NCBI GenBank assembly: GCA_016432325.1
Contig: CP066684.1
Location: forward strand, 480,001 to 544,000
Direction: 5' to 3'
Length of the DNA stretch: 64,000 bases
Origin: Candidatus Aenigmatarchaeota archaeon
GTDB lineage: Archaea > Aenigmatarchaeota > Aenigmatarchaeia > PWEA01 > JACQIF01
The stretch's first letter is position 1. Each line of letters starts with the position of its first letter. The notes under the pieces were generated by a model. The model had not been told where the DNA came from, did no database searches, and saw nothing but the letters and a program-made list of their open reading frames with translations. The translations under genes and the position numbers were made by a program. Below are positions 1,800-41,314 of this stretch, piece by piece.

Positions 1800-1855
1800 C
1801 CGCCGCGCAACACGATATTTATAGGCGTCGCCATTAACACTTCTTCGGTGGAACC

Positions 1856-2746
1856 TTGGCAGAACTGGACATGAAAAAGGTCAAGAACGAAATAGCGAAA
1901 AAGCTCAAGGCCGGGGATATCGAACCGCACGAAGCGCAGATTCTTGAGCAAAGGGCGCCGGCCGCGCACGCCATCGCAAGCGTACCTGCGAAGGGCGGTC
2001 ATGCGGCGAAGAGCTACGTCAAGACAGGCGTGCCCGGATTCGACGCACTGTTCGAAAAAGGCATTCCAAAGGGTTCCACCATACTCATGGCAGGCGGCGC
2101 GGGCTCAGGCAAAACCATATTCTGCCTGCAGATGGCGGTTTATCAGGCAACCCACGGGAAGAAATGTTTCTACATGAGCTTCGAGGAGAATGAGGAGCAC
2201 CTGATGGAGCACATGAGGGACTTCGGCTGGGATCCGGAAGCGCTCATCGACTCCGGAATGCTCAGGATAAAGAAGTTCTCGCCGCTGGAAGTCGGAGAGC
2301 GGATGGGAGCCGTGTTGGCCCGCGAGCGCGGGTCGGTTCCTGTCGAGCTGGCGCCGATGATCCTCGGAGAGGGGTTCGAGCCCGATTTCATAGTCCTTGA
2401 TTCGCTCTCTGCCGTGGCCTCGGCGTTCCCGGGAAAGGACGGTTACTACAGAATCTACATAGAGCAGCTCTTCGATTTCTTTGAGAGTCTGGGCAGCACG
2501 ACGTTCCTGATAGCGGAGACCACGCAGGTGCCTGAGATATTCTCGCCGACGGGCATAGAAGAGTTCCTGGCCGACGGGGTCATCGTGCTCTACAACATCA
2601 AGCGCGGCGACACGAGAGAGAGCGCCGTGGAGGTCCTGAAGATGCGGGGCTCGAAACACGAAAAGAAGATAGTGGCGATGCAGATAACGGACCGCGGCAT
2701 CAACGTCTATCCCGAACAGCAGATATTCGGCGACATCAAGGGCTAG
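1856..2746 (+). CDS. KaiC/RAD55-like ATPase (single domain)
   Basis: KTGVPGFD, GGAGSGKT, SFEE, VLDSLS, EEFLADGVI, EVLKMRG. Confidence 0.9.
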   Translation: MAELDMKKVKNEIAKKLKAGDIEPHEAQILEQRAPAAHAIASVPAKGGHAAKSYVKTGVPGFDALFEKGIPKGSTILMAGGAGSGKTIFCLQMAVYQATHGKKCFYMSFEENEEHLMEHMRDFGWDPEALIDSGMLRIKKFSPLEVGERMGAVLARERGSVPVELAPMILGEGFEPDFIVLDSLSAVASAFPGKDGYYRIYIEQLFDFFESLGSTTFLIAETTQVPEIFSPTGIEEFLADGVIVLYNIKRGDTRESAVEVLKMRGSKHEKKIVAMQITDRGINVYPEQQIFGDIKG

Positions 2747-3195
2747 ACCGTTCCGGACAGCGTGCCTGTGCTGTTGAACAGCGTGGCCGAACTGATTTTC
2801 GTGTAGTAGAACTCTATCGATACGTCGTATGCGTACGTGCCTCCAGACAGCGCCAGAGGCACGGCGACGTTTATGAAGTCCGTCGTCTTGCCCGGACCCA
2901 CGCTGAGAGACACGTTCGTTCTGTTGGCCAGATTTCCGTCTGCGGTCCTCGCGTAGATTGCCGTCACTGTCACGGGGTCGGCCAGCCTGTTGTGCAGCTG
3001 CACCTGCAGGTCTCCTGACGTGGAGTTCAAGCCGAATCTCGGTATGTCTATCTCCGAGAAACCGGTCTTGCCCTTGGTGATGAGGCCCGATGGGGCAGCC
3101 ATTGTGAACAGCACCACTCCAAGGATTATGAGCACCAGCAGGGCCCAGCCGTATGTGGTTATGTACTCGAGAGCAGCCTGACCGCGGGAGTTCAT
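2743..3195 (-). CDS. Archaeal type IV pilin (class III signal peptide)
   Basis: RG/QAALEYITTYGW followed by a hydrophobic stretch; paralog of 11789-12271. Confidence 0.85.
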   Translation of the reverse strand: MNSRGQAALEYITTYGWALLVLIILGVVLFTMAAPSGLITKGKTGFSEIDIPRFGLNSTSGDLQVQLHNRLADPVTVTAIYARTADGNLANRTNVSLSVGPGKTTDFINVAVPLALSGGTYAYDVSIEFYYTKISSATLFNSTGTLSGTV

Positions 3196-3254
3196 GATTG
3201 GTTCTGGTCTGCCCGCTATATAATGTTTTTATTCGGGCTTGGCGCACCATCTGC

Positions 3255-4754
3255 ATGCGCCGCCCGCCGGGCCAAGTGGCGATGGAGTACATCATAATCG
3301 TCGGCATAGTCCTGTTGCTCATCGTGCCGCTCGTGTTCTTCACCAGCTCATCGTCCACGTCCCAGAAGAGGTCTGCGGACGCGGAAACGGCCGTGACGCG
3401 GCTGGCGACGGCCGCGGAGTCCGTATACTCGCAGGGCGTGGGAGCGCAGCAGACCGTTTCCGTATTTCTTCCCGAAGGGGCCAATCTCGAAGATTCCACC
3501 ATCTCCGGCCGGCTGATAAGGCTGCGCGTAGTAACGGCCGAAGGCGACGAGTACGACGTCGTCAGGCTGCTTCCTTTCAACATATCGGGCGTCTTTCCAA
3601 GCGATACGGGCTTCCAGCAGATTACCGTAAGGACGTTCGCCAACGGAACCGTTGGAATAGGCGATGTCACAGAAGCGCCTGTGGCGGCGTTCTGCGGCGA
3701 CGGGATAAAGAACGGCTCCGAGCAGTGCGACGGTTCTGACTTGGGAGGCGCCACGTGCGTCAGCCAAGGCTACACTTCAGGGACGCTCTCCTGCGGCGGC
3801 TCGTGCACGTACGACACATCCGCGTGCGTAAACGTGACGTACACCTTCACCTATGTGAACGGGTTTGTCGTTGGCAACGGAACCGTGGCGTCGTTCGCTT
3901 CGTCTCAGAGTGCTTCGGACAGCGGAGCCGTCGCGACGTACACTGAAACGAACTTCACCACGTTCGGGTCTCCTTCTGGTGTGTCAAATATCACGCTCAA
4001 CGCCAACGAGGTAACGACGGCTTCGAACGACTGGACGGACGAGGAGAACACATTCTCCTCGGACAACCTCTACGCGAGGCTGAACAATCTAGATAACAAA
4101 AACTTCATCGTCGGCCTCGACAACACGACCGACAGCGGAACTATTACGTCTGTCGTAATCAGCGTCGAGCAGAACATAAGCGACCCCGGGGATTTGGACG
4201 ACGAGTTCATACTGACGCCCTTCATCGGCGCGACGGCAGGCACGGCCTGCGCTAACATAGACGGCACTGCCGCGGACGCCTACATAGAGTGCAACGTGAC
4301 GAACAACCGTCCGGGAGGCGGCTCATGGACCTTCGCAGACCTCAACAATACACGTGTCCGCGTCAACATCAACAAGCTCGGCGGCGCGCCTGTCTTCAGC
4401 GTGGACCACATAAGGCTAATCGTGACTAGAACGACGGCAGCCACGCCAGATGTTTCGTCGTTCACGTTGAACGTCACAACCAATTTCACGTCCGTCCCGT
4501 CAGGCTCCGTTCAGGAACTGCAAATCCGTTACAACGTCACGAATGACACGTTCGCAGTGCACGTGTGGAACGGCACGAGTTTCAACAGCCGCGGGACGCT
4601 CGACTCGACCGCGATGACGAACTTTTCATACGTTCTGACCGCATCAGAGTACAACAGCGGAGCGCCGCGTGTGAAGTTTTTGGACAGCGCGTTCAACGCG
4701 TCGCAGGGCGTGCTGCGAATAGACTATGAACGCGTCAACACGACAACGCCGTGA
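3255..4754 (+). CDS. Large pilin-like adhesin with class III signal peptide and a Cys-rich repeat
   Basis: MRRPPG/QVAMEY; CGDGIKNGSEQCDGSDLGGATC...GTLSC...C...C module; Thr/Asn-rich beta region with many N-x-S/T sequons. Confidence 0.75.
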   Translation: MRRPPGQVAMEYIIIVGIVLLLIVPLVFFTSSSSTSQKRSADAETAVTRLATAAESVYSQGVGAQQTVSVFLPEGANLEDSTISGRLIRLRVVTAEGDEYDVVRLLPFNISGVFPSDTGFQQITVRTFANGTVGIGDVTEAPVAAFCGDGIKNGSEQCDGSDLGGATCVSQGYTSGTLSCGGSCTYDTSACVNVTYTFTYVNGFVVGNGTVASFASSQSASDSGAVATYTETNFTTFGSPSGVSNITLNANEVTTASNDWTDEENTFSSDNLYARLNNLDNKNFIVGLDNTTDSGTITSVVISVEQNISDPGDLDDEFILTPFIGATAGTACANIDGTAADAYIECNVTNNRPGGGSWTFADLNNTRVRVNINKLGGAPVFSVDHIRLIVTRTTAATPDVSSFTLNVTTNFTSVPSGSVQELQIRYNVTNDTFAVHVWNGTSFNSRGTLDSTAMTNFSYVLTASEYNSGAPRVKFLDSAFNASQGVLRIDYERVNTTTP

Positions 4755-4778
4755 GCTTTATGAAAAGGGTTTGAAGCT

Positions 4779-5183
4779 ATGAAAGGACAGGCGGGCATGG
4801 AGTTTCTTGTTGTCATAGGCATCATGCTCGTCGTCTTCCTCTCTCTCAACATCGCGTTCATCGACAGGGGAGGCGACGTCTCCGTATATGCGCGCAACGC
4901 CCAGATGCAGGAAGCCGTTGAGAAGGTCGCGGGCATGATAACCGCGGCGCACGCAACGCACGGCTTGAGGGTTAACACGACACTGCCGTCGTTTGTGGAA
5001 GGCTGCGAACCTGTGTATACCGTACATGCGAGTTTGTTCGTAGCGGTCTGCGGCGATGAGGGCTTTGCGTCCGGCTTCATAGGCAACGTCACCAACGGAA
5101 CATCATCTCCTCCGTTCTCAATCAGAGAAGACATTGCAATCAAAGGCCTTTCAGACGGCAGGGTTGAGGTGACGCAGAGATGA
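4779..5183 (+). CDS. Minor pilin (class III signal peptide)
   Basis: MKG/QAGMEF plus hydrophobic helix. Confidence 0.8.
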   Translation: MKGQAGMEFLVVIGIMLVVFLSLNIAFIDRGGDVSVYARNAQMQEAVEKVAGMITAAHATHGLRVNTTLPSFVEGCEPVYTVHASLFVAVCGDEGFASGFIGNVTNGTSSPPFSIREDIAIKGLSDGRVEVTQR

Positions 5184-5671
5184 AAGGGCAGGTCATAAGC
5201 GCGGACTTCGTCGTCGCGTTCTTCATATTCCTTGCTATAGTGCTGGGCCTCTTCCTGTCATGGAACGGCGCCACAGACACGATTGGCCAGATCTACTCCA
5301 GAAACGCGATGCAGAGGGCAGGCGGACTCGCGGCCGATTCGCTGGTGAGAAGCCCGGGGGAACCCGACGACTGGACGGCGGCGAGCGTGACGGCTCTGGG
5401 TCTCGCCGACGACGCGCCCAACGTGCTGAACGCGGACAAGGTGTCCCGTATGCTCAACGTGCCTTACGAGACGTCAAGAAACATGCTCCGCATGCCGACG
5501 GACTTCTCGCTGGAAATAAACAGGACCAGCGGCGCCGCATTCACCGTAAACAACACGCAGGCCGTCTACGGCACGCAGCCGTTCGCGAACGCCACGAACA
5601 TCGTGGTGGTCCGCAGGCTCGTGGTGATGGGCGGCATCCCCGGAGTCCTGACTATGAAGGTGTGGGCATGA
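5180..5671 (+). CDS. Minor pilin (class III signal peptide)
   Basis: MKG/QVISADF; LVRSPGEPDDW motif; ATGA overlap with the upstream gene. Confidence 0.8.
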   Translation: MKGQVISADFVVAFFIFLAIVLGLFLSWNGATDTIGQIYSRNAMQRAGGLAADSLVRSPGEPDDWTAASVTALGLADDAPNVLNADKVSRMLNVPYETSRNMLRMPTDFSLEINRTSGAAFTVNNTQAVYGTQPFANATNIVVVRRLVVMGGIPGVLTMKVWA

Positions 5672-6168
5672 CGGTTAAGAGCGGCAGCGGATTCGCAAAA
5701 AGGCCCAAGGGATTCGTGATAACCATGGACGCCATGCTGGCCGCGGTCGTCGTCATAGCCGCAATCGCCTCTGTTTCAAACTCCCTCGAGGTAGGCCAGA
5801 CAGACGTCTGGAAAGAGGACTCCCTGTACAGATACGCGCAGGACGTGCTTCTCGTGCTGGACAGGAACGGTACGTTCACGATTGTGGCGTCCTCATCAGC
5901 AGGCAACGCGACCCTCGCCGCCGCGCTGGACGACCTGATGCCGGTGAACCTCGGCGCGAATGTGACGCTGAGAATATACACAGACGCGAACAACGACGGC
6001 GTTTTCGAGGAGCGAAGCGTCAACGCCGCATACGCGGCGTCTGCGCCAACGGGATGGTCCTCGTCGCAGGCAGTGGCCGCGAAGCGAATCTATACGAAAT
6101 ACAACGACTCGTCGCCCACGAACAGCGAATACGGCGTCGCGGTGATAAACCTATGGACGGCGGTATGA
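5668..6168 (+). CDS. Minor pilin (class III signal peptide)
   Basis: KG/FVITMDA plus hydrophobic helix; start reassigned to the ATGA overlap. Confidence 0.75.
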   Translation: MTVKSGSGFAKRPKGFVITMDAMLAAVVVIAAIASVSNSLEVGQTDVWKEDSLYRYAQDVLLVLDRNGTFTIVASSSAGNATLAAALDDLMPVNLGANVTLRIYTDANNDGVFEERSVNAAYAASAPTGWSSSQAVAAKRIYTKYNDSSPTNSEYGVAVINLWTAV

Positions 6169-7067: not shown

Positions 7068-8201
7068 ATGCCACGAAAAAAGGGAGCGACGTCCGTAGAC
7101 GACCTTCTGGACCTGATAAACGAGCGGCGTAACGTAGAGCTCCACGAAGCGGCGACGGTTCTCAACGTGGACCCGGACACCATAGAAGAGTGGGCCGAGG
7201 CTATGAGCGACCAGGGCCTCATGGAGATAGACTACGGCTTCGGAAAGGTCACTCTCAAAGCCATCGCGCCTGCGGCATTCGAAGAGAAGGGCAAGGAGGC
7301 GATGGTCAGAAAAACGGACGTGTCCAAGAAGGCGACGACCGCCGAGCAGCGCGCCCTCGAGATAAAGAAAAAGGTTACCTACACCGCGAAAGACATCGAA
7401 GAGCTCGGGAAGACCATAGAAGAACACGGCAAAGAAGCCGAAGGAATGGTGTACGACGTCAAGCAGCTCTTTGCCGAAGGGGAGAAGTTCCTCAACGAAC
7501 TCGATTACAGGAAGATAAGCGCCGAGCAGCGGGAACGCGAGATGCTCGAAAAGTTCAACTCTCTTGAGACGTCGCTACACGCGTCGGAGAAGCGGCTGGC
7601 CCAGATAATAAAGGAGTTCGAGCAACTCGACGCGACCGTGGAAGACATCTTCAAACGCGCTCACGCGCACGACGAGGAGGTCCGCGCGCTCGAAACGATG
7701 AAAGGCGAGATAACCAAGGACATGAAGAAGCTTGAAAGCGAGGCCGGCATCCTGATACACTACGAGGAGAAGGTCAGCCCATCGGTCCTCCAGACCCTGA
7801 AGAGACTCGTGATGCGCGTGCTCGAAAAGCTGGAGTACGTGCTGAAGAAGAAGGTCGACGTCTCGGCCGCTCACAAGGAAACGCACGAAACCATACAGGA
7901 AGCGCGGGAAAGGTTCGGCATTGAGCAGCCCGAAAAGGAGTTCGTGGGCGAGGAGGAGACGCCCACTGTTGCGGAGAAGCCTGAGCAAACAAAAGACGCT
8001 GGCCGGACAGAAACTCAGAAGCAACAGCAGGCTCCCGAAAGCGGCGAGGAGGCAAAGAAGGACGAGACTACCGCTCAGCAAGAGGGGACCAGTAAACAGG
8101 TTTACCGCTCAGAAAGTCAAGAGGGGACCAGTAAACAGGTTTACCGCTCAGAAAGTCAAGAGGGGACCAGTAAATGGCCGAGAGAAAAGAAGAACAAGTG
8201 A
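7068..8201 (+). CDS. Pilus-locus coiled-coil protein with an N-terminal winged-helix-like domain
   Basis: VDDLLDLI...EAATVLNV...IEEWAEAMSDQGLMEIDY; long E/K-rich heptads; directly upstream of the ATPase. Confidence 0.65.
   Translation: MPRKKGATSVDDLLDLINERRNVELHEAATVLNVDPDTIEEWAEAMSDQGLMEIDYGFGKVTLKAIAPAAFEEKGKEAMVRKTDVSKKATTAEQRALEIKKKVTYTAKDIEELGKTIEEHGKEAEGMVYDVKQLFAEGEKFLNELDYRKISAEQREREMLEKFNSLETSLHASEKRLAQIIKEFEQLDATVEDIFKRAHAHDEEVRALETMKGEITKDMKKLESEAGILIHYEEKVSPSVLQTLKRLVMRVLEKLEYVLKKKVDVSAAHKETHETIQEARERFGIEQPEKEFVGEEETPTVAEKPEQTKDAGRTETQKQQQAPESGEEAKKDETTAQQEGTSKQVYRSESQEGTSKQVYRSESQEGTSKWPREKKNK
8079..8174 (+). repeat. 39-bp tandem repeat, about 2.5 copies (QEGTSKQVYRSES), each full unit containing the hairpin GTAAAC-AG-GTTTAC
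   Basis: CAAGAGGGGACCAGTAAACAGGTTTACCGCTCAGAAAGT at 8079 and 8118, partial at 8157. Confidence 0.95.
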
Positions 8202-9748
8202 TGAAGAGGTACGTCGTCGCGGCAGACGACGTGATAGCCACCATCGTCATATCAATGAAAAGCGAGGACTACGTGCCGCACTACACTCTCTCTTTCGACA
8301 AGCTGCAGCCCGGAACCGCGGCAGTCCTGAAGGCCATCCGCGAGGAGATCGTAAGGACCGTAGACATAACACCCAGCGAGCTTCTGGACCCCAAGATGGC
8401 GCAGCTGGTCAAGGAAAAATTCGTCCAGAGGTCCAGAGAAACGCTCGCCTCCCGCATGCCGACTCTTGACGAGACTACGAGACGCTCGCTCGCAGGCTCG
8501 CTCGTCCACGAGATGTTCGGCCTCGGAGACATCGAACTGCTCATAAGGGACGACGACTTGGAAGAGATAGTCATAAACGCGTCGGACGAGCCCATGTGGG
8601 TATATCACAAGGAGTTCGGCTGGCTCGTGACGAACCTGAAGCTGCAGGGAGAGGAAGACATACAAAACTACGCTTCCATAGTGGGCAGGCGCGTCGGCCG
8701 CCAGATAAGCACTCTCAACCCGCTTCTTGACGCGCACCTGGTCACCGGAGACCGCGTGAACGCGACGCTGTTTCCCATCTCAACGAAAGGCAACACGCTC
8801 ACGATACGAAAGTTCGCGCGCAACCCGTGGACCATCACGCACTTCATCGATCCGTCATCGAGAACCCTCAGCGTCGATCTCGCGGCTTTCCTGTGGACGT
8901 GCATCCAATACGAACTCAACATAATCATCGCCGGCGGAACCGCTTCGGGGAAGACGTCTTTCCTGAACGCGCTGGCACCTTTCGTCCAGACCAACCACAG
9001 AATCGTCTCCATAGAGGACACGCGCGAGCTTCAACTGCCGCGCTTCGCCCACTGGGTTCCCCTGACAACGCGCGAACCGAACCCCGAGGGCCGCGGAGAG
9101 GTGTCGATGCTCGACCTGATGATAAACTCCCTCAGAATGCGGCCGGACCGCATACTCGTGGGAGAAGTGCGCCGCCAAGCGCAGGCCGAAGTGATGTTCG
9201 AGGCCATGCACACCGGCCATTCGGTGTATTCGACGCTTCACGCGGACAACGTAGACGAGATGCGCTCGAGACTCATCAACCCACCAATCAATATACCCGA
9301 ATCGCAGCTCGAGGCCCTGCATCTGGCTGTCGTGCAGTTCCGCCACAGGAGGCTGGGCATACGCAGGACTTTCCAGGTGGCTGAAATCGTGCCGACGGCC
9401 CACATCGGCGAGAAACGCGAAGTGCACTTGAACATGCTCTACAGGTGGAATCCTTCAACCGATGCCGTTGAAAAGGCCAACAGCAGCATACGAACCAACG
9501 GCGAGATATCGGCGTACACGGGCATGACGACCAAAGAGATAGCGGACGAAGTCAAGGAAAAGGCGCAGCTGCTCCAGTGGATGCTGGACAACAACATCAA
9601 GACGGTGAACACCGTGGGAAAAGTGGTTGCTGACTATTACAGGAACAAGAGCGAGACCATGGAATACGCGAAGAGGAACGCGAAGCCGCGCGACATATTC
9701 TCCGAGGATCTTCTCGTGGAGCTGCGGGCCCGCGGCTACATGAAATGA
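8174..9748 (+). CDS. Type IV pilus assembly ATPase (TadA/CpaF/VirB11 family)
   Basis: GGTASGKT, SIEDTREL, LRMRPDRILVGEVR, MHTGH, STLHA. Confidence 0.95.
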   Translation: MAERKEEQVMKRYVVAADDVIATIVISMKSEDYVPHYTLSFDKLQPGTAAVLKAIREEIVRTVDITPSELLDPKMAQLVKEKFVQRSRETLASRMPTLDETTRRSLAGSLVHEMFGLGDIELLIRDDDLEEIVINASDEPMWVYHKEFGWLVTNLKLQGEEDIQNYASIVGRRVGRQISTLNPLLDAHLVTGDRVNATLFPISTKGNTLTIRKFARNPWTITHFIDPSSRTLSVDLAAFLWTCIQYELNIIIAGGTASGKTSFLNALAPFVQTNHRIVSIEDTRELQLPRFAHWVPLTTREPNPEGRGEVSMLDLMINSLRMRPDRILVGEVRRQAQAEVMFEAMHTGHSVYSTLHADNVDEMRSRLINPPINIPESQLEALHLAVVQFRHRRLGIRRTFQVAEIVPTAHIGEKREVHLNMLYRWNPSTDAVEKANSSIRTNGEISAYTGMTTKEIADEVKEKAQLLQWMLDNNIKTVNTVGKVVADYYRNKSETMEYAKRNAKPRDIFSEDLLVELRARGYMK

Positions 9749-31790: not shown

Positions 31791-32252
31791 ATGGCCGACC
31801 TCAAACACGTGAAACGCTGGCTGATGGAAGAGGCCACCGATATAAAGAAGTCTTGGGGGCCTCTGCTGGCTCCTCATGACTATGACACAGTTGTTGAGAC
31901 GCACAAGCTGGCCAACACACTAGACTGGGAAAACGGCAGACGTGGAGGCGTTGCGTTCTGGAAAGGTTATGGAACCGACGGAGTTGCCGTCCAAAACCTC
32001 AGGCAATACAGCGGCGGCGCCGGTATGTCCACGACTGGTGTATTGGCAATCGGTCCTGCAGACGACTACTTCGAACGCCTAGGATACAACACCACCAACC
32101 TCCGATTCGCGAATGATCTGTTCGGGATTCCATTAAGATCTGGCCAAAACGGCTTGACAATCAATGGCATACGCCGCAAAGGGATCGAGTATTCTGAAGA
32201 GGCGTTCGGCAAGTTCCTGAGGGCGAAACTCAGACCAATACAAGTAGCCTAA
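31791..32252 (+). CDS. Hypothetical protein
   Basis: TTTAAATA upstream; shares VAFWK with the preceding ORF. Confidence 0.55.
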   Translation: MADLKHVKRWLMEEATDIKKSWGPLLAPHDYDTVVETHKLANTLDWENGRRGGVAFWKGYGTDGVAVQNLRQYSGGAGMSTTGVLAIGPADDYFERLGYNTTNLRFANDLFGIPLRSGQNGLTINGIRRKGIEYSEEAFGKFLRAKLRPIQVA

Positions 32253-33133
32253 ACCCCGACAAACCTCGCCAGCCTCGAACGCGCCTCTTTTTCGTCTTTC
32301 GCCTCTACGATTGCGCGGCCGCTCGCGAACAGTGAAATGCGCCGCGCGTCAGGCCAGACGTGCAACACGCCGTCGAACAGTTTCGTTTTGAATTTGCCTG
32401 AAAGCGTCTTGTCAAGAGACGGCAAGTCCAATCGCTTGTTTAGCCTCATATGATACGCGTCTTTTGCGCACAGAGCGACAATAGTTTCTGTCCTCTCCAG
32501 ATACTCGTACTTCTTTTGCGCGCACGCCGGGCAGTTCTTGCGCGGAGGAACGTCCGTCTTTGTTATCTCCTCGTGTGAAATGTCTATTAGGGTGCCGCCG
32601 TTCGACCCCTTCAACGCATGCTCTGTCTGCAACGCCGCCACGCGCGACGCGGTCTCGTTGTCTATTCCAACGGTATCGCAGGTTTCGAGGGGTCCCGGCT
32701 CCCGCGGAATCAAACATCTGAGGCACGGTTTCCCTTCCGGCGAAAAAGCCATCACGATGCCGCGGTCCTGCACTGCGCCTGCGTAAACCCAGAGCACGCC
32801 GTTCGCCAAACAGTAGTCGTTCAGAAGAAAACGCGCCGCCATGTTGTCCGTGCAATCGAGAACGACATCCGGTTTCCCAAGAAGCCGGCCGATGCTGTTC
32901 GCGTTTACGTCGTCGACGACGCCTTCTATTCCGAGCCGCTCGGCAACAACCAGCGCCTTTGCTTTTCCAACGTCGTTCTTATTGTACAACTTCTGGCGCT
33001 CCAGGTTTCTATCGTCGATGAAATCCCTGTCTATTACACGAACACTCGCGCCTGCTCTGGTTAGAAGCCCGGCCGTGCGCGTTCCTATGGCCCCCGCGCC
33101 AACAATAACGGCTTCTTTCCGCGTCTTTACCAC
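32249..33133 (-). CDS. ThiF/MoeB/UbaA-family adenylyltransferase with a C-terminal extension
   Basis: VGAGAIG, DRD, NLERQ, DCTDN, PCLRC, TCDTVG, CPAC, ISLFASGRA. Confidence 0.9.
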   Translation of the reverse strand: MVKTRKEAVIVGAGAIGTRTAGLLTRAGASVRVIDRDFIDDRNLERQKLYNKNDVGKAKALVVAERLGIEGVVDDVNANSIGRLLGKPDVVLDCTDNMAARFLLNDYCLANGVLWVYAGAVQDRGIVMAFSPEGKPCLRCLIPREPGPLETCDTVGIDNETASRVAALQTEHALKGSNGGTLIDISHEEITKTDVPPRKNCPACAQKKYEYLERTETIVALCAKDAYHMRLNKRLDLPSLDKTLSGKFKTKLFDGVLHVWPDARRISLFASGRAIVEAKDEKEARSRLARFVGV

Positions 33134-34685: not shown

Positions 34686-35462
34686 CTAAGAGAATCCCAT
34701 CATCCACGTCTTGAACTTCTCGAAGAAGCCCGAGTGGCCGTTCGTGTACTGCTCTCCTGTCAGGGACGCGGCGAGCCTGACGAACTCCCTACTCGACGGG
34801 GCCGACGGCCTGTGGTTTACGACAGGCGATTTCTTGTGTATGGCTTCCTGCACGCCCACGTCTTCGGGCACGCGCGCGAGTATCGGCGTCTCCAGCATCT
34901 CTTTCACTTCGCGCTCGCTCAGCTGCGCGTGCTTCTTCTTCGCATCAACGCGGTTGAGTACGACGCCGAGGGTTTTCACGCCCAGCTCCTCGGCCAGTTT
35001 CTTTGTCTTCAGGGCATCCGTTACGGAAGGCAAATCGGGATTTGTAACAATCAACAGGTCGTCCGCGGCCTTCAGCGCGGCTATCGTCTCGTTTCCCAGT
35101 CCGGCCGCGCAGTCCAGAAGCACTATGTCCGTGTCGGCTGTGGCGTCCTGCAGCGCCTTCGAAACGCGTTTCGCGTCTGTGCCTTCCAAATCTTCCAGGG
35201 AAAGCGAGGCCGGCACGATTCTCATGCCGCTCTGGTGTATATACATCGCCTCGGTCAGGTACGCGTCGCCTCTAAGAACGTCGTGAAGCGTCACCGGATA
35301 AAGGGGGATTCCCAGATGGAGAGAAAGCGAGGGCGTGGTGAGGTTCGTGTCTACGAGCGTTACGTCCTTTCCAAGCTTCCGCAAAGCCAAACCTAGGTTG
35401 GCCACAGTGGTAGTCTTTCCAACGCCTCCCTTGCCGCCCGAAACGGCAATAATTCGTCCCAT
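34686..35462 (-). CDS. minD: Cell division ATPase MinD (archaeal)
   Basis: SGGKGGVGKTT, DCAAGLG, VTNPDLPSVTDALK, GVVLNR, VPED. Confidence 0.93.
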   Translation of the reverse strand: MGRIIAVSGGKGGVGKTTTVANLGLALRKLGKDVTLVDTNLTTPSLSLHLGIPLYPVTLHDVLRGDAYLTEAMYIHQSGMRIVPASLSLEDLEGTDAKRVSKALQDATADTDIVLLDCAAGLGNETIAALKAADDLLIVTNPDLPSVTDALKTKKLAEELGVKTLGVVLNRVDAKKKHAQLSEREVKEMLETPILARVPEDVGVQEAIHKKSPVVNHRPSAPSSREFVRLAASLTGEQYTNGHSGFFEKFKTWMMGFS

Positions 35463-35583
35463 TTAATCGCCAGTTCTCCCGAAAACGCAGATCGGTGTAG
35501 TACCCTAACTACCTTTGGGAGCTATTTAAGCATTTACTGCGCCCAGAGCGCGGTAAATTTGTTTCTTGCGAGACGCGATAAAC

Positions 35584-35874
35584 TCAAAACCGCTGTTTTA
35601 GGCGTTCTCGAGGCAAATGTTCGGAGGCCCGCGCGGCTTCTGACACGGGTCTCTGTTCAGGGAACCAAGAATAAACGAACGTCTCCAGATCGGGCCTGTA
35701 TTTCAGGACGCTTTTCACGAAACCTGCGTCGTCCCTTACATGGGCCGTCTCTTCAACATCGCGAATGACGAGCCTTCTCTGCGTTTCTGTGAACTTCGGA
35801 AGGCGCGATGAACGCGCGCAGGCGTCAAGCTCCCCCAAAACGTTCGCATAATGACCCAGCCAGTCTTTTGGCAT
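35584..35874 (-). CDS. Hypothetical protein
   Basis: TTTAAA TATA about 25 nt upstream; 96 aa. Confidence 0.45.
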   Translation of the reverse strand: MPKDWLGHYANVLGELDACARSSRLPKFTETQRRLVIRDVEETAHVRDDAGFVKSVLKYRPDLETFVYSWFPEQRPVSEAARASEHLPRERLKQRF

Positions 35875-35909
35875 TCATATGTTTGGGTGCAAAACGATTT
35901 AAATGGTGA

Positions 35910-35948
35910 TGGCGGGCCTCTTGGAAAGACGCGCTTTCCAAAGGCCCG
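35910..35948 (-). repeat. Hairpin downstream of tRNA-Arg that duplicates its acceptor stem and G-CCA end
   Basis: Minus strand GGGCCT-TTGGAAAG-CGCGT-CTTTCCAA-G-AGGCCC-G-CCA. Confidence 0.75.
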
Positions 35949-35962
35949 ACCTTTGAAATTTA

Positions 35963-36274
35963 TGGCGGGCCTGGTGGGATTTTCCATCGTCGCGCCGGTG
36001 TACGGGAACGGAGTTCCCGACATGCCGGAAATGCCCGGCATTTCCGTGCACAGGCGGACTTTTCATGAAAGCTTTGGCGCGTATATCGAGCGAGCGCCGA
36101 TAGGCGCGAGCGCGCCAAAGGTTTCGAACCCACGGCTTCCAGATTGCTTCTTTCATTCGGGACAGTGCCCGTCAATGCTTCCAACGCATGCATTAGAAGT
36201 CTGGCACTCCATTAGCTCCGTTTTCGCCATGCGTTGCCGCCAGCGAAAAGGCGCCCAAGCTGAGTTACAGGCCC
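35963..36274 (-). tRNA. tRNA-Arg(TCT) with three introns: D-loop ~36213-36254 (~42 nt), 37/38 at 36145-36193 (49 nt), 59/60 at 35980-36122 (143 nt)
   Basis: GGGCCTG/CAGGCCC-G-CCA acceptor; ACTC/GAGT D-stem; CCAGA-CT-TCT-A^...^A-TCTGG with BHB helix CTTC/GAAG; GTGGG-TTCGAA^...^T-CCCAC; TTTATTTA promoter upstream. Confidence 0.88.
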
Positions 36275-36328
36275 TTGGGTATCTTAGCATATTGACTAAA
36301 TAAAGAGGGTGTCTCTGGTGGTGCCTGC

Positions 36329-36397
36329 TCAGGCGAGGTCATATCCACTGTTCTGAAGTAGTGCCTTCGATCTTTTAACTTCTTTTATCTTGGCCAT
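36329..36397 (-). CDS. Putative RiPP precursor peptide, 22 aa: MAKIKEVKRSKALLQNSGYDLA
   Basis: ATG about 24 nt downstream of a TATA box (leaderless spacing); divergent from two SagB-like genes; basic N-terminus with C-terminal NSGYDLA. Confidence 0.55.
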   Translation of the reverse strand: MAKIKEVKRSKALLQNSGYDLA

Positions 36398-36418
36398 ACG
36401 GTTTCTTGCATCTGCTTC

Positions 36419-36429
36419 TATTTAAATAT
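36419..36429. promoter_or_regulatory. Palindromic TATA box (TATTTAAATA) probably shared by the divergent peptide and SagB genes
   Basis: Lies about 20-25 nt from both ATG 36397 (-) and ATG 36448 (+). Confidence 0.55.
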
Positions 36430-36447
36430 CTCATAACATCGTTTTGC

Positions 36448-37494
36448 ATGCTAAGAAGCGGCTCCTTTCTTTGCATGAGACTGGACGAGGGAGGCCGTCT
36501 CTTACTCGAAGATTTTATATCGAAAAGGGCGTTTCGCTGCACAGACCGACTCATAGACATGCTTGTCTTTTGCCATAGGCCGAGGAACATTGCCGAGATA
36601 CGTATTTTCATGAAAACCCAGCTCGGTTTACGCGGGGCCGAAGGAGAACAGTTTTTAAGAGAACTTATAGAGAAGGATATTATTCGGCCGGGAGCAAAAG
36701 ACGAAAGGGCTCTGAAAGCGTTCTCTATGTGGAAAGGATACAACTGGCGGGAGCCATTTCTGCACAATCTTTTGACAAGGGACTATCCGTTCGTTGAGCG
36801 CGGTGTTGGATACTCAGAAATGGACAAAGAGACAATGATAAACTACACCAAGAAGAGCAAAATGCCGAACGCATACAAAGAGTACAAAGGCGTCTTGAAA
36901 ATAAGGCTGCCTCCATGCTCTACTGAATTAGGAATGTTCCATGAAGCCATAGAGGGAAAACTATCTCGTAAATCGGAAAGGATGACGTTGACGTCCCTAT
37001 CAGATATTCTGTTCTATACGTTTGGAAAGGTAGCCGAACGTCAAACGCTGCCATGGGGGAAGTATATCTTGAAAACAAGCCCGTCGGGAGGCGCGAGGCA
37101 TCCCACGGAAGCATATGTCTATGCTTCCGAGGTAAGCGGTTTGAAGAAAGGAATCTACCACTATTCTGTGAAGGACCATGCTCTCGAGGTTTTGGATGGG
37201 GTAAGACGTGAGACACTGGAGGCCGCCATTCCAGAGACCACCAAGTCTGATACCAAAGCCATCGTCTTCCTAACTTCCCTTTTCGCAAGGAATATGTGGA
37301 GATACAGAGAACCTAGAACATTTCGTACACTATTCTTCGACGCGGGACATGTCATACAGACTCTACAACTGGTAACCGAATCGCGTGGTTTTGACGTCGA
37401 GTTACGTCAACCCTTCAGTACACAGAAGTTGGAATCCTGCCTTGGGCTTGATATGTATGCGGAGGGGGCAATCTCATATGCCGTCATTAAGTAA
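36448..37494 (+). CDS. SagB/ThcOx-family peptide dehydrogenase (nitroreductase fold) with an N-terminal wHTH/RRE-like domain
   Basis: KTSPSGGARHPTEAY, GIYHY, NMWRYREPRTFR, DAGH; N-terminal beta strands then helices ending FLRELIEKDII. Confidence 0.88.
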   Translation: MLRSGSFLCMRLDEGGRLLLEDFISKRAFRCTDRLIDMLVFCHRPRNIAEIRIFMKTQLGLRGAEGEQFLRELIEKDIIRPGAKDERALKAFSMWKGYNWREPFLHNLLTRDYPFVERGVGYSEMDKETMINYTKKSKMPNAYKEYKGVLKIRLPPCSTELGMFHEAIEGKLSRKSERMTLTSLSDILFYTFGKVAERQTLPWGKYILKTSPSGGARHPTEAYVYASEVSGLKKGIYHYSVKDHALEVLDGVRRETLEAAIPETTKSDTKAIVFLTSLFARNMWRYREPRTFRTLFFDAGHVIQTLQLVTESRGFDVELRQPFSTQKLESCLGLDMYAEGAISYAVIK

Positions 37495-38350
37495 ATATTC
37501 TGTTCTGTCGCGATTCTCGCGTCTTATGACGGTTGCGAACAAATGGTACCTGCGGGATCCGGTATCCAACCATGAGACCGAGGTGCCCATCAGATTGTTG
37601 AGGAGCACGATTGGTAAACTCAGCGCTGCCGGGAAGATTCCGCTGTCTACAAAAAGTCCACGAGACCGATGGATCGCACACGACTGGTTCCATTCTCTCC
37701 ACCTATATGCCGAGATGAGAGGAGGCTATCCCAATGGATCAAATGGAAATGATGGAGGCATCCGATTGTTTCCAAACAGACAGCGCGACAAGAATGTCGT
37801 TAGGTTGCCGTCTCCTAGGTTGCTACCTCTCATGGACACGGCAGATGTTCTATTAAAAAGACGAACGTGGAGGGCCTTTAAAGCGGATATGATAACATCT
37901 CGCGATCTGTCGGACGCCCTCTACTATGGCGCCAGACGCTATCCGCTCCGGTCACTCGACGTATACTTGATTATTTTGCGCGTAGACAACATACCACGAG
38001 GAGTATACCGTTATAATGCGGATGCGCACCTCTTGGAAACTGTGAGGGAAGGGGATTTCACGGATTCAATATACAACGCGAGCCAGAGACAATATGTAGA
38101 TAACTCAGCTGTCGTTTTCCTGATTTCCGCAGATTACAGCAGAGCAATGCGTGATAATAGAAATGCGGCCGCGTATTCAAATATTATGATTGACGCGGCC
38201 AGGCTGGCCCATCTCATTATTCTGACGGCTACTTGTCTAGGCCTAAAAAACTTTTTAACGCCTGCTATAAAGGAGAGTATAACAGACGACCTGTTGACCT
38301 TAGACGGCTGGTCTAAAGGCTCCCTGTACCTTGTCGCGATAGGCAGATGA
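37478..38350 (+). CDS. Second, degenerate SagB/ThcOx-family nitroreductase-fold protein
   Basis: LPSP, LLKRRTWRAF, GVYRY, FLTPAIKE; lacks PSGGA and the RY/KY motif; GGAGGGGG SD; overlaps the upstream gene. Confidence 0.8.
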   Translation: MPSLSKYSVLSRFSRLMTVANKWYLRDPVSNHETEVPIRLLRSTIGKLSAAGKIPLSTKSPRDRWIAHDWFHSLHLYAEMRGGYPNGSNGNDGGIRLFPNRQRDKNVVRLPSPRLLPLMDTADVLLKRRTWRAFKADMITSRDLSDALYYGARRYPLRSLDVYLIILRVDNIPRGVYRYNADAHLLETVREGDFTDSIYNASQRQYVDNSAVVFLISADYSRAMRDNRNAAAYSNIMIDAARLAHLIILTATCLGLKNFLTPAIKESITDDLLTLDGWSKGSLYLVAIGR

Positions 38351-38506
38351 AAGGAAATATAAATAGAAATTGTTGTATCTGGAAGCATGCAGGCGAATCG
38401 CGTAACGGCCTCTATACGCGTTTCAGCTCTGATCATGCTCCTGTAGAAAGCAGCCGGTTATGCGGCCGTTCATATGTTATTAATTACTACCGTCTATGGT
38501 GTCCAT

Positions 38507-41314
38507 ATGGAATACGACTTCCGCGCGGTCGAGAAGAAGTGGCAGGAGAAGTGGGCCGACGCGCGCATATTCGAGCCGGGGGCAAAAGGCAAGAAGTTCC
38601 TCTTCACCGTTCCCTTTCCTTATACGTCCGGTCCTTTGCACGTGGGCCACGGACGAACTTTCACCATAGGGGATTTCATCGCCCGCTACAAGAGAAAGAT
38701 GGGGTTCAACGTCCTGTATCCGATGGCCTTCCACATGAGCGGCACTCCCGTCCTCGCGATTTCGCGCGCCATCGAGGCGGGAGACAAGAAGACGACGGAT
38801 CTCTATACGGATTACGTGAGCCTCTACGACCCGAAGAACGCCGGTTCGATTATTAAGAGCTTCAAAGACCCGTGGAACGTCGCCAATTTCTTCGCGTCTG
38901 TCATCGAGAAGGACTTCCGTTCTATCGGCTATTCGATAGACTGGACGCGCACGTTCAACTCCGGCGAGCCGATATACAACGCGTTCATCGAATGGCAGTA
39001 TCTGAGAATGCGCGAGAAGAACGTGATAACGAAAGGCTCGTATCCGATTCTGTACTCTCCTGACATGCAGAACGCCGTTGGCGAGGACGACATAAAGGAC
39101 GGGGACACGGATCCAGTGGATCTTCAGGAGTACACGGTCGTGAAGTTCAGGATGGGAGGCGACGTTCTTCCTGCCGCGACGCTCAGACCGGAGACGGTTT
39201 TCGGCGTCACCAATATCTGGGTAAATCCCGACGCGTCTTACGAGCGCGTGCGTGTAGCCGACGAAACATGGATACTGTCCAAGGAGGCCGCGGCGAAACT
39301 GCGCCATCAGAAAGAGAACGTCGGGCGCATCGGAGACGTCAAGGCCAAAGAACTGATCGGAAAGGAGGTTGAGATACTCGGACGAACGGTTCCCATACTG
39401 CCCGCGACGTTCGTGGACGCGGACCACGCCACAGGCGTCGTCTATTCCGTCCCGGCTCACGCACCTTACGATTATGCCGGACTCGTCGACTGTCAGAAGA
39501 AAGGGCTCGGTGTTGGCGTAAAGCCGATAAAGATTGTAGACATCGAAGGTTACGGCGATTGTCCTGCGGAAGAGGCGTGCAAAAAGTTCGGAGCAGGTAC
39601 GCAGGCCGACGAGCAGGCGCTTGACGAAGCGACTAACCAACTCTACAAGGACGAGTTCTACAAGGGCGCGTTAGGCAAGAAGTGCGGAGAGTTCGCAGGT
39701 CTCAAGATATCAGAGGTCAAAGATACTGTGAAAGCATGGATGCGCAAGAAAGGCAACGCCGACGTCTTCTACGAGCCGTCGCGCCGTGCCGTAACGCGCG
39801 ACGGCCGCGTCGTTATAGGCGCGGTTCTCCGCGACCAGTGGTTCCTCGACTACACTTCGAAAGAATGGAAAGAGAAGACAAAGAAGCTCGTCGACGGGAT
39901 GGATATCTATCCGGAAAAGTACAGGAAGTCCTTGCGGGATCTGATAGACTGGCTGGAAAAGAGGCCGTGCGCGCGCAGGCGCGGCATCGGCACGAAACTC
40001 CCGTGGGACAAGGAATGGACGATAGAAAGTCTCTCCGACTCGACGCTTTACATGGCCCTGTACACGGTAGCTCCTATAATCAGAAAGGAGGCGCGGCCCG
40101 AGCAGCTCGTTCCGGAAGTCTTTGATTTCATCTTTCTGGGCAAGGGCGCAGCAAAGGACGTTGCGAAGCAGAGCGGCGTCAAGGAGCGTGCGCTCAAGGA
40201 GATGCGCGAACAGTTCGAGTATTGGTATGCGGTGGACCAGAGACATACGACGCCGGCTCACCTGTCCAACCACCTGTCTTTCTACCTGTTGCATCACACG
40301 CTGCTCTTCCCGGAGAAGTACTGGCCCCGCGCGCAGACGCTCAACGAGATGCTTCTGGGCGTGGAAGGCCAGAAGATGTCAAAGTCTAAGGGAAACGTAA
40401 TCCCTCTTCTCGACGTCTCGCGGAAGTACAGCGCCGACCTGTTCAGGACCTACGTCCTTTCGGCGGCTGACATAGACACGACCATGGACTGGTGGGAGTC
40501 GATAGTCGCCTCGACGAAAGGGAAGCTCTACCAATTCGTCGAACTGATGGACGCGGTCTCAAAGGCCAAGCCCGCGAAGAAAACGGAAGGCGCGGACAGG
40601 TGGATGACCGGCCGGTTCTACCAGAGGCTGGCGCGCGCCAAGACCGCGGCAGAGACGTACAAGATACGCGCGTACGTCATCGAACTGTTCTATGATATGC
40701 TGACTGACATCGCCTACTACAGACGCCGTGTCGGGGACGAGCGAGCGATGCCGGTGATACGCACGTTCGCAGAAGACTGGCTGGTTGCTCTCGAACCTGT
40801 GATGCCTCACCAGGCCGAGGAGTTCTGGGAGCGGTTCGGCAACAAGCCGTTCGTTTCGCTCGCTAAGTGGCCGAAAGGAGGCGCGACGCTGGACAGGCGC
40901 GTCGAGCTGTCAGAGGATGTCGTGAAGCGCGTCCTCGAAGACGTCGCGGAAATCCGCAAGATAGCGGACATAGAGAAGCCTCGGCGCGTCGTTCTTTTCG
41001 TCGCGCCTGAGTGGAAGAGGCGCGTGTACGCGCTCGTTCGCGCAGGCAAGCAGCTGAAGGACGTGATGCAGGACGCTGAGCTTAAGAAGTTCGGCCAAGA
41101 TATCGCGAAGTATGTGCCCACGTTGCAGAAGCGCGTGCACGAATTGCAGGCTGACGTGCTCACAGAAGACGAGGAGTACGAAGCTCTGAAGAGCGCGGCC
41201 GAGTTCCTGCAAAAAGAAACCGGAGCGGCTGTCGAGATAGTGCGCGCGTCCGCGTCGAAAGAACAGAAGGCGCGCGCAGCGGACGTGCACAAGCCGGGGA
41301 TATTGATTGGGTGA
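38507..41314 (+). CDS. leuS: Leucine--tRNA ligase (archaeal type)
   Basis: PFPYTSGPLHVGH, AATLRPET, TGVVYSVPAHAPYD, ESLSDST, KMSKSKGN. Confidence 0.97.
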   Translation: MEYDFRAVEKKWQEKWADARIFEPGAKGKKFLFTVPFPYTSGPLHVGHGRTFTIGDFIARYKRKMGFNVLYPMAFHMSGTPVLAISRAIEAGDKKTTDLYTDYVSLYDPKNAGSIIKSFKDPWNVANFFASVIEKDFRSIGYSIDWTRTFNSGEPIYNAFIEWQYLRMREKNVITKGSYPILYSPDMQNAVGEDDIKDGDTDPVDLQEYTVVKFRMGGDVLPAATLRPETVFGVTNIWVNPDASYERVRVADETWILSKEAAAKLRHQKENVGRIGDVKAKELIGKEVEILGRTVPILPATFVDADHATGVVYSVPAHAPYDYAGLVDCQKKGLGVGVKPIKIVDIEGYGDCPAEEACKKFGAGTQADEQALDEATNQLYKDEFYKGALGKKCGEFAGLKISEVKDTVKAWMRKKGNADVFYEPSRRAVTRDGRVVIGAVLRDQWFLDYTSKEWKEKTKKLVDGMDIYPEKYRKSLRDLIDWLEKRPCARRRGIGTKLPWDKEWTIESLSDSTLYMALYTVAPIIRKEARPEQLVPEVFDFIFLGKGAAKDVAKQSGVKERALKEMREQFEYWYAVDQRHTTPAHLSNHLSFYLLHHTLLFPEKYWPRAQTLNEMLLGVEGQKMSKSKGNVIPLLDVSRKYSADLFRTYVLSAADIDTTMDWWESIVASTKGKLYQFVELMDAVSKAKPAKKTEGADRWMTGRFYQRLARAKTAAETYKIRAYVIELFYDMLTDIAYYRRRVGDERAMPVIRTFAEDWLVALEPVMPHQAEEFWERFGNKPFVSLAKWPKGGATLDRRVELSEDVVKRVLEDVAEIRKIADIEKPRRVVLFVAPEWKRRVYALVRAGKQLKDVMQDAELKKFGQDIAKYVPTLQKRVHELQADVLTEDEEYEALKSAAEFLQKETGAAVEIVRASASKEQKARAADVHKPGILIG

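Follow-up and report, generated by a model that had tools for sequence, protein, structure and literature searches.

A candidate three-gene trifolitoxin-like (tiarin) cassette upstream of leuS in a DPANN-like archaeon

We analyzed a stretch of 64,000 nucleotides (hereafter the window) from contig CP066684.1 of a Candidatus Aenigmatarchaeota archaeon and concentrated on three genes at 36329-38350: an open reading frame (ORF) of 22 codons and two overlapping genes for SagB-type flavin mononucleotide (FMN) dehydrogenases, here called SagB1 and SagB2. Judged from sequence comparison, this locus is very probably a minimal cluster of the trifolitoxin-like peptides known as tiarins, which are peptides that are made ribosomally and then modified post-translationally (RiPPs). 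We also consider it probable that the three genes form a single tiarin cassette, acquired horizontally and inserted between a tRNA-Arg gene and the resident leuS gene. That this particular copy yields an active product directed at leucyl-tRNA synthetase (LeuRS) would, in our estimation, be about an even bet. The host is a tiny (0.87-Mb) DPANN-like archaeon, whose genome (G000) is available as a single contig of 874,869 bp and is 90% complete by marker count. New in this locus are the DPANN-like host, the three-gene format, the divergent and so far shortest precursor, the single native leuS, and the conserved minD / tRNA-Arg / leuS site.

Trifolitoxin is made from a short precursor (TfxA) by TfxB and TfxC, two SagB-like FMN enzymes that are the sole proteins with a RiPP recognition element (RRE) domain in its cluster (bioRxiv 10.64898/2025.12.02.691738). 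The tiarins were defined late in 2025 (December) from RefSeq genomes, as 79 related clusters that all have a precursor with a conserved glutamine; the residue preceding this glutamine matches the aminoacyl-tRNA synthetase (aaRS) gene of the cluster, and YcaO, ThiF, and methyltransferase are variable extras, no accessory enzyme being present in all clusters (bioRxiv 10.64898/2025.12.02.691738). What defines trifolitoxin and the tiarins is a pair of SagB-like enzymes whose action on the peptide does not depend on azoline formation (bioRxiv 10.64898/2025.12.02.691738). An earlier note on this DNA had postulated a new class of peptide modification; this proposal was given up, since both the enzyme pair and the precursor match the described family.

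Precursor peptide and enzyme pair

The 22-codon precursor gene (36329-36397, minus strand) was recognized from the ORF list and from its counterparts, small homologous ORFs that adjoin the nearest SagB1 homologues. It lies head-to-head with SagB1 (36448-37494, plus strand, 348 amino acids [aa]) and SagB2 (37478-38350, plus strand, 290 aa), exactly as the earlier note had described. N-terminal alignment with the closest homologues supports the start of SagB1 at ATG 36448 over the database call at 36475; the likely start of SagB2 is ATG 37478, which is the database gene call and gives an overlap of 17 nt with SagB1. The 50-bp divergent spacer contains a palindromic TATA-like box, ATTTAAAT (36421-36428, assigned to neither strand), and its center lies ~24-27 nt from each of the two divergent ATGs. 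The box and its leaderless spacing had been pointed out before and are indeed present; its promoter role is putative, and it might serve both sides as a common promoter from which leaderless transcripts start in either direction. At one of the related loci, L016, TTTAAATA is centered ~27 nt upstream of the divergent precursor ATG.

The 22-codon ORF cannot extend further: 9 codons upstream, the frame is closed by a TAA, and the stretch between has no other start codon. The encoded peptide has an N-terminal leader with a KIKEVKR motif, followed by the core A-L-L-Q and then N-S-G-Y. After the leader, it contains no cysteine, no threonine, and one serine. We scored the peptide against 11,533 small ORFs from 82 homologous loci, with 20,000 shuffles as the null. 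The small ORFs beside the closest SagB1 homologues (loci L004/L017 and L016) ranked first, first-equal, and fourth, and the observed score was attained by none of the shuffles. At L004/L017, the ORF encodes 25 aa and is located just upstream of SagB1, preceded by a strong Shine-Dalgarno sequence (AAGGAGG); at L016, it is divergent and 57 bp away from the first gene of the operon. A K-rich N terminus and a K-A-L-L-Q core are common to the peptides of the window, L004/L017, and L016. The earlier note had made its case depend on a conserved short ORF beside homologous SagB pairs, and such ORFs were found. Because of this conservation, the short ORF is, on sequence grounds, a genuine RiPP precursor gene.

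When the peptides were aligned on the glutamine, the window peptide and the published precursors looked alike: both have a leader motif, I-K-E-V/I or an acidic counterpart, 9-10 residues ahead of the Gln, and after it A-L-X-Q. The published leader of Staphylococcus pseudintermedius contains IKEVKR, an exact match to the window peptide. Furthermore, four published Leu-type cores read L-L-Q-x-x-x-Y, the same pattern as in the window; with the residue in front, the published pattern is M-L-L-Q-x-x-x-Y. With 22 aa, the window precursor is one residue below the published tiarin range of 23-65 and is the shortest tiarin precursor so far; its divergent orientation is that seen at L016. The Q-anchored comparison identifies Leu-Gln, and not Ser-Gly-Tyr, as the conserved element. 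Thus, of the K-rich motif ending in (S)GY-x-x-x that the earlier note had expected, the K-rich N terminus was conserved, but the conserved core was A-L-L-Q instead of S-G-Y. A location of the precursor between SagB2 and leuS was also considered and rejected, as no ORF with an X-Gln core was found there.

SagB1 matched the SagB profile TIGR03605 with 101.4 bits (cut-off 78.4) and also matched Pfam Nitroreductase. The SagB-type match of SagB2 was weaker (62.2 bits, under the cut-off), and its Pfam Nitroreductase match was 33.8 vs 23.5. Homologues of SagB1 numbered 7,312 cluster representatives at E <= 0.001 and came from archaea, candidate phyla radiation (CPR) bacteria, actinomycetes, proteobacteria, and firmicutes. 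A direct word-index protein search with SagB2 returned distant nitroreductases only; its relatives were taken from the loci found with SagB1, and it was 37-43% identical to the SagB2 of L004. In tblastn, SagB1 matched eight contigs listed as tiarin biosynthetic gene clusters (Supplementary Data 1 of bioRxiv 10.64898/2025.12.02.691738) with E values of 1e-32 to 1e-47 (Natrinema, Halopiger, Pelagibius, three Streptomyces, and Dactylosporangium). The published precursors were located at those contigs, beside the SagB1/SagB2 homologues, and SagB2 aligned with the TfxC-like partners of published tiarin clusters.

SagB1, the TfxB-like enzyme, retains every invariant residue of its family. It keeps the P-S-G-G-A-R-H-P block and has no RRSxR motif, while SagB2, the TfxC-like second subunit, keeps RRTxR and has no P-S-G-G-A-R-H-P block, which suggests that the two proteins are complementary halves of one active site. 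The AlphaFold model of SagB1 (pLDDT 88.9) consists of N-terminal strands and three helices, followed by the nitroreductase fold. Its best Foldseek match was ThcOx (8pz5/5lq4; E 1.6e-18, ~368 aligned columns) over the full length, with McbC and BmdC next. AlbA (8uc3_A), the nitroreductase-fold subunit of a cyclodipeptide oxidase, resembled SagB1 only weakly in fold (E 2.7e-3) and came well after ThcOx, at rank 26. The model, with an N-terminal winged helix and a full-length alignment with ThcOx, is in good agreement with the RRE-like domain that the earlier note had assigned to the first enzyme gene. For the further idea that this domain would bind the basic N terminus as a leader, both elements, the family leader motif and an RRE-like domain, are present.

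A model of the SagB1-SagB2-FMN complex scored 0.93 (best control, 0.00), a mark attained by 58 of 80 solved complexes and 2 of 110 mismatched pairs, although own alignments and a riding FMN make these counts only rough, and the score may reflect general fold likeness because nitroreductase-fold dimers are well represented among solved structures. The runs agreed in at least 89% of contacts, partner pLDDT was at least 85, and SagB2 contacted the N-terminal domain of SagB1.

Following the family, we propose that the leader (KIKEVKR) of the 22-aa precursor would be bound by the RRE-like domains of the TfxB-like/TfxC-like heterodimer. The flavoprotein pair would then convert the conserved Gln and its neighbors in A-L-L-Q into the Gln-derived heterocyclic chromophore of the family, for which YcaO would not be needed. 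By the family rule, the Leu before the Gln would direct the product to LeuRS, and the product would act as a Trojan-horse translation inhibitor against neighboring cells. That the pair works without YcaO had already been put forward in the earlier note, together with a whole-genome check; we ran this check and found no YcaO (PF02624) in the whole single-contig genome (90% complete), while positive control genomes gave matches. This YcaO-free state applies only in part to the relatives, whose homologous pairs are accompanied by YcaO (L006 and L023) or by ThiF (L004 and L016); this bears out one half of what the earlier note had named as a refutation.

The linked aminoacyl-tRNA synthetase and the insertion site

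The leuS gene (38507-41314, plus strand) starts 157 bp downstream of SagB2 and encodes an archaeal-type LeuRS (TIGR00395, 896 bits). It is the sole LeuRS gene in the host genome, and its composition is native. At all five loci examined, the residue before the Gln agreed with the specificity of the linked aaRS. The window combines Leu-Gln with an adjacent leuS, and so does L004 (ALLQ), where SagB1, ThiF, SagB2, and a C39-like peptidase gene (the arrangement of L004/L017) are divergent from leuS. Arg-Gln (ALRQ) is found at L006, where SagB1, SagB2, and YcaO are divergent from an adjacent argS. At L023, which has the order lysS, SagB1, SagB2, and a YcaO-like gene, the peptide carries Lys-Gln (ALKQ) and the LysRS gene (475.8 bits) is immediately upstream. 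Finally, L128 combines Arg-Gln with an ArgRS gene 3.8 kb away. The L016 locus contains methyltransferase, SagB1, and ThiF genes.

The first reading of this DNA had taken leuS for an unrelated housekeeping flank. This has to be corrected: by the tiarin rule, leuS is part of the system and its predicted functional partner, namely the predicted target and immunity determinant of the cluster. Because the only LeuRS of the producer is encoded immediately downstream, this enzyme would be intrinsically insensitive to the product, or another route of protection would operate.

On the other side, a minD/ParA-like ATPase gene (34686-35462, minus strand; Pfam matches) forms the left flank of the conserved synteny. 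ARAGORN and Rfam, run on the raw DNA, gave no tRNA at 35963-36274. In-silico splicing of four exons (36274-35963, minus strand) yielded a cloverleaf that ARAGORN identified as tRNA-Arg(TCT); the D-loop intron measures 40 nt, the one in the anticodon loop 49 nt, and the T-loop intron 143 nt. In relatives, an intron-less tRNA-Arg(TCT) is present at the same site, between minD and leuS. The spliced tRNA and these counterparts show that the cassette had been placed correctly between tRNA-Arg and leuS, and the tRNA gene (35963-36274, minus strand) is the left boundary of the inserted cassette.

The GC content of the cassette is 0.47 vs 0.56 for the window, and the GC content at third codon positions is 0.52 in both SagB genes vs 0.75 in leuS, 0.73 in minD, and 0.69 in the CBS gene. 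The cassette is thus compositionally foreign, and the figures agree with the previous remark that it is AT-richer than the flanking genes. The spacer between minD and leuS measures 3,045 bp here, vs ~370-440 bp in four of seven relatives and 745-1,277 bp in the other three. In place of the 2-kb cassette of the window, relatives with minD, tRNA-Arg(TCT), and leuS have only ~300-400 bp. Given the native composition of leuS and the conserved minD / tRNA-Arg / leuS site, the cassette was inserted directly upstream of leuS and did not arrive with it. Composition and synteny also led us to reject a recent transfer of leuS together with the cassette.

Two further observations concern the boundaries. 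The ~500 bp between minD and the tRNA gene (35463-35962) had no family match and contain a 96-aa ORF (35584-35874, minus strand); they may also be extra DNA, the minD-leuS spacer being much shorter in four of the seven relatives. Additionally, the sole further contig on which these genes were found, an independent Logan contig (L123, from SRR12113384), is identical to 36033-38399 of the window and ends near both cassette boundaries, which could mean that the island is variable in the population or could be due to chance. Sequencing runs SRR12113384 and SRR12113385, from the source community, contain these contigs.

LeuRS itself is variable in this group. Among 5.8 billion proteins, none is closely related to the window LeuRS: the best identity is 53%, and identities are flat (45-53%) across many archaeal lineages. 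Among relatives (loci L112-L127), two LeuRS types are distributed patchily, with one type per genome and differences even within one genus: an archaeal type and an L004-like type with a bacterial-type catalytic core. A genome of the same genus as the host, G001, carries the other type. Both types are found beside minD, which suggests in-situ replacement. The L004 enzyme (3139-5838 of that locus, minus strand) matches the bacterial TIGR00396 over residues 12-585, and its C-terminal third matches the archaeal-type PRK12300; from these matches, it looks like a hybrid architecture.

Activity of the cassette and alternative explanations

The cassette might be the decaying remnant of a tiarin cluster that, having lost the genes for ThiF, peptidase, exporter, and immunity, has ceased to produce an active compound. 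We consider this unlikely, though it has to be taken seriously. The closest relatives carry ThiF and a C39-like peptidase (L004/L005) or YcaO (L006 and L023); the former two are missing from the window cassette, and neither the C39-like peptidase nor a ThiF of the cluster type seen in L004/L005 turned up when the genome was searched. A ThiF-family gene at 32249-33133 was tried as the cluster ThiF and rejected, since BLAST against the cluster ThiF gave no match. No exporter, peptidase, or nearby GNAT gene was found around the cassette, in line with the earlier statement that no YcaO, protease, or transporter is visible in the window; the only two GNAT genes of the genome are both >200 kb from the cassette. 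Moreover, although RRTxR is intact in SagB2, W-R-Y-R-H has degenerated there, and two segments are shorter than in the closest homologue.

These deficits weigh against the proposed explanation, a tiarin cassette with a LeuRS-directed product, as do four points of another kind. A second aaRS copy is present in every genome of the tiarin survey (bioRxiv 10.64898/2025.12.02.691738), and G000 has one LeuRS and no second housekeeping copy of the cognate enzyme; a single cognate aaRS was likewise found in the genomes of L004/L017 (G061, LeuRS) and L023 (G062, LysRS). Experimental proof of the target rule exists for trifolitoxin with ArgRS only, and Leu-type tiarins are predictions. The homology to the type cluster runs through published homologues and not through the Rhizobium TfxB/TfxC themselves. 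Finally, the heterodimer score may stem from likeness to solved nitroreductase-fold dimers and not from this pair.

Against decay, all three ORFs are intact, the peptide retains its leader motif and A-L-L-Q, SagB1 retains all invariant residues, and the heterodimer was modeled with confidence. W-R-Y-R is likewise missing from the TfxC-like proteins of haloarchaea in published clusters, and, according to the preprint, no accessory enzyme is universal.

That the neighborhood of leuS is incidental, the cassette having integrated beside a tRNA gene that lies near leuS and its product having a target other than LeuRS, appears improbable. It is true that tRNA genes are common integration sites and that leuS is compositionally native, is at its ancestral locus, and has no second copy. 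However, the independent Leu-Gln cluster L004 abuts a leuS of a different type, with the cluster in a different orientation, and argS and lysS border the clusters with Arg-Gln and Lys-Gln, respectively. With ~900 genes in a genome, a cluster would come to lie beside one particular gene by chance in roughly 0.2% of cases.

Distinctly improbable, too, is the reading of the earlier note, in which a YcaO-independent modification of an unknown kind would act on Ser-Gly-Tyr (dehydro-Tyr or GFP-like backbone chemistry) and define a new RiPP class. The lack of YcaO fits it, and the window, L004, and the four published Leu-type cores all have a Tyr at +4 or +5 relative to the Gln. Nevertheless, the Ser is not conserved and the Tyr is missing in one of three close homologues (L016), so that NSGYDLA could not be kept as the modification center; the invariant element is A-L-L-Q, and the enzyme pair and precursor architecture fit the described tiarin family. 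Last, 20-30-codon ORFs are abundant by chance in this region, but a chance ORF beside flavoproteins acting on a non-peptide substrate is hardly credible, as it is contradicted by the shuffle test, by a peptide that stays conserved between loci although their enzymes share only ~40% identity, by the strong Shine-Dalgarno sequence before the L004 copy, and by the RRE-like domain.

Comparison with known systems and related loci

The tiarin assignment agrees with the published clusters in several respects. In both, an adjacent pair of SagB-type FMN dehydrogenases with an RRE accompanies a short precursor that has a conserved Gln and an aliphatic/charged leader motif, the amino acid preceding this Gln agrees with an aaRS gene of the cluster, and YcaO, ThiF, and methyltransferase genes are accessories that differ from relative to relative. 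Unlike the published archaeal hosts, which are haloarchaea and Cuniculiplasma, the window host is a DPANN-like archaeon with a 0.87-Mb genome. The window also differs in having three genes only, a divergent 22-aa precursor, and no GNAT or exporter gene nearby, and in that its LeuRS is the resident sole copy instead of an extra resistant paralogue. The Leu-type tiarins of actinomycetes (Streptomyces xylophagus, Kribbella, Rhizocola, Saccharothrix, and Actinoplanes) share with the window an L-L-Q core, often with a Tyr four residues after the Gln, but have acidic leaders, longer precursors, large genomes, and a second aaRS copy. LeuS-domain genes were counted near four Leu-type actinomycete clusters (bioRxiv 10.64898/2025.12.02.691738).

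The azole synthetases of thiazole/oxazole-modified microcins and linear azol(in)e-containing peptides (SagBCD and McbBCD) and ThcOx have the same SagB-type nitroreductase fold, ThcOx being the best match, including the N-terminal RRE-like region. In contrast to the window, systems of the SagBCD type combine a YcaO cyclodehydratase with a core rich in Cys, Ser, and Thr; the window genome is without YcaO, and the window core, with no Cys and a single Ser, offers no azoline substrate. Agrocin 84 targets LeuRS, and its producer carries a resistant LeuRS. Both agrocin 84 and microcin C share with the proposed product the idea that a carrier (peptide or nucleotide) delivers an aaRS-blocking warhead while the producer has a resistant or modified target, but their biosynthetic enzymes and chemistry are unrelated to the window cassette. 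Microcin C is named as a Trojan-horse aaRS inhibitor in the tiarin preprint (bioRxiv 10.64898/2025.12.02.691738).

As a tiarin cluster, the locus would extend the family to tiny symbiont-type archaea, and its sister loci would extend it to CPR bacteria. It would be the smallest version so far, with a precursor and two enzymes, and the three-gene cassette would therefore be a convenient minimal system for the chemistry of the Gln-derived chromophore. With its cognate aaRS in single copy beside the cassette, the locus does not follow the published clusters, which have an additional, resistant paralogue, and it would offer natural pairs of presumably resistant and sensitive LeuRS enzymes for studying resistance. 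We tentatively hypothesize, while regarding it as rather doubtful, that in ultra-reduced genomes (DPANN and CPR) tiarin cassettes are wired to the single cognate aaRS, that immunity is provided by an intrinsically resistant housekeeping enzyme, and that tiarin warfare could drive the replacement of LeuRS types at the minD / tRNA-Arg / leuS locus.

Some observations on related loci fall outside this argument. The Arg-type tiarin locus L128, from a JGI metagenome, is flanked by a transposase and by extra EF-1A/EF-Tu-like GTPase genes (1831-3077 and 7866-9119). A SagB1-like gene without SagB2 was found in 50 of 83 loci (within L026-L094; Acidobacteriota, Gammaproteobacteria, and others). Next to such lone genes, ~800 bp downstream of position 8001, lies a gene whose product, a Ser/Thr protein kinase with TPR repeats, is ~830 aa long; this is a separate, uncharacterized association. 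On the contig of P0008, a SagB1 homologue is followed by genes for an aminotransferase, a class II aaRS (Asp/Asn/Lys type), Ham1, and SerRS, which makes this an aaRS-rich neighborhood.

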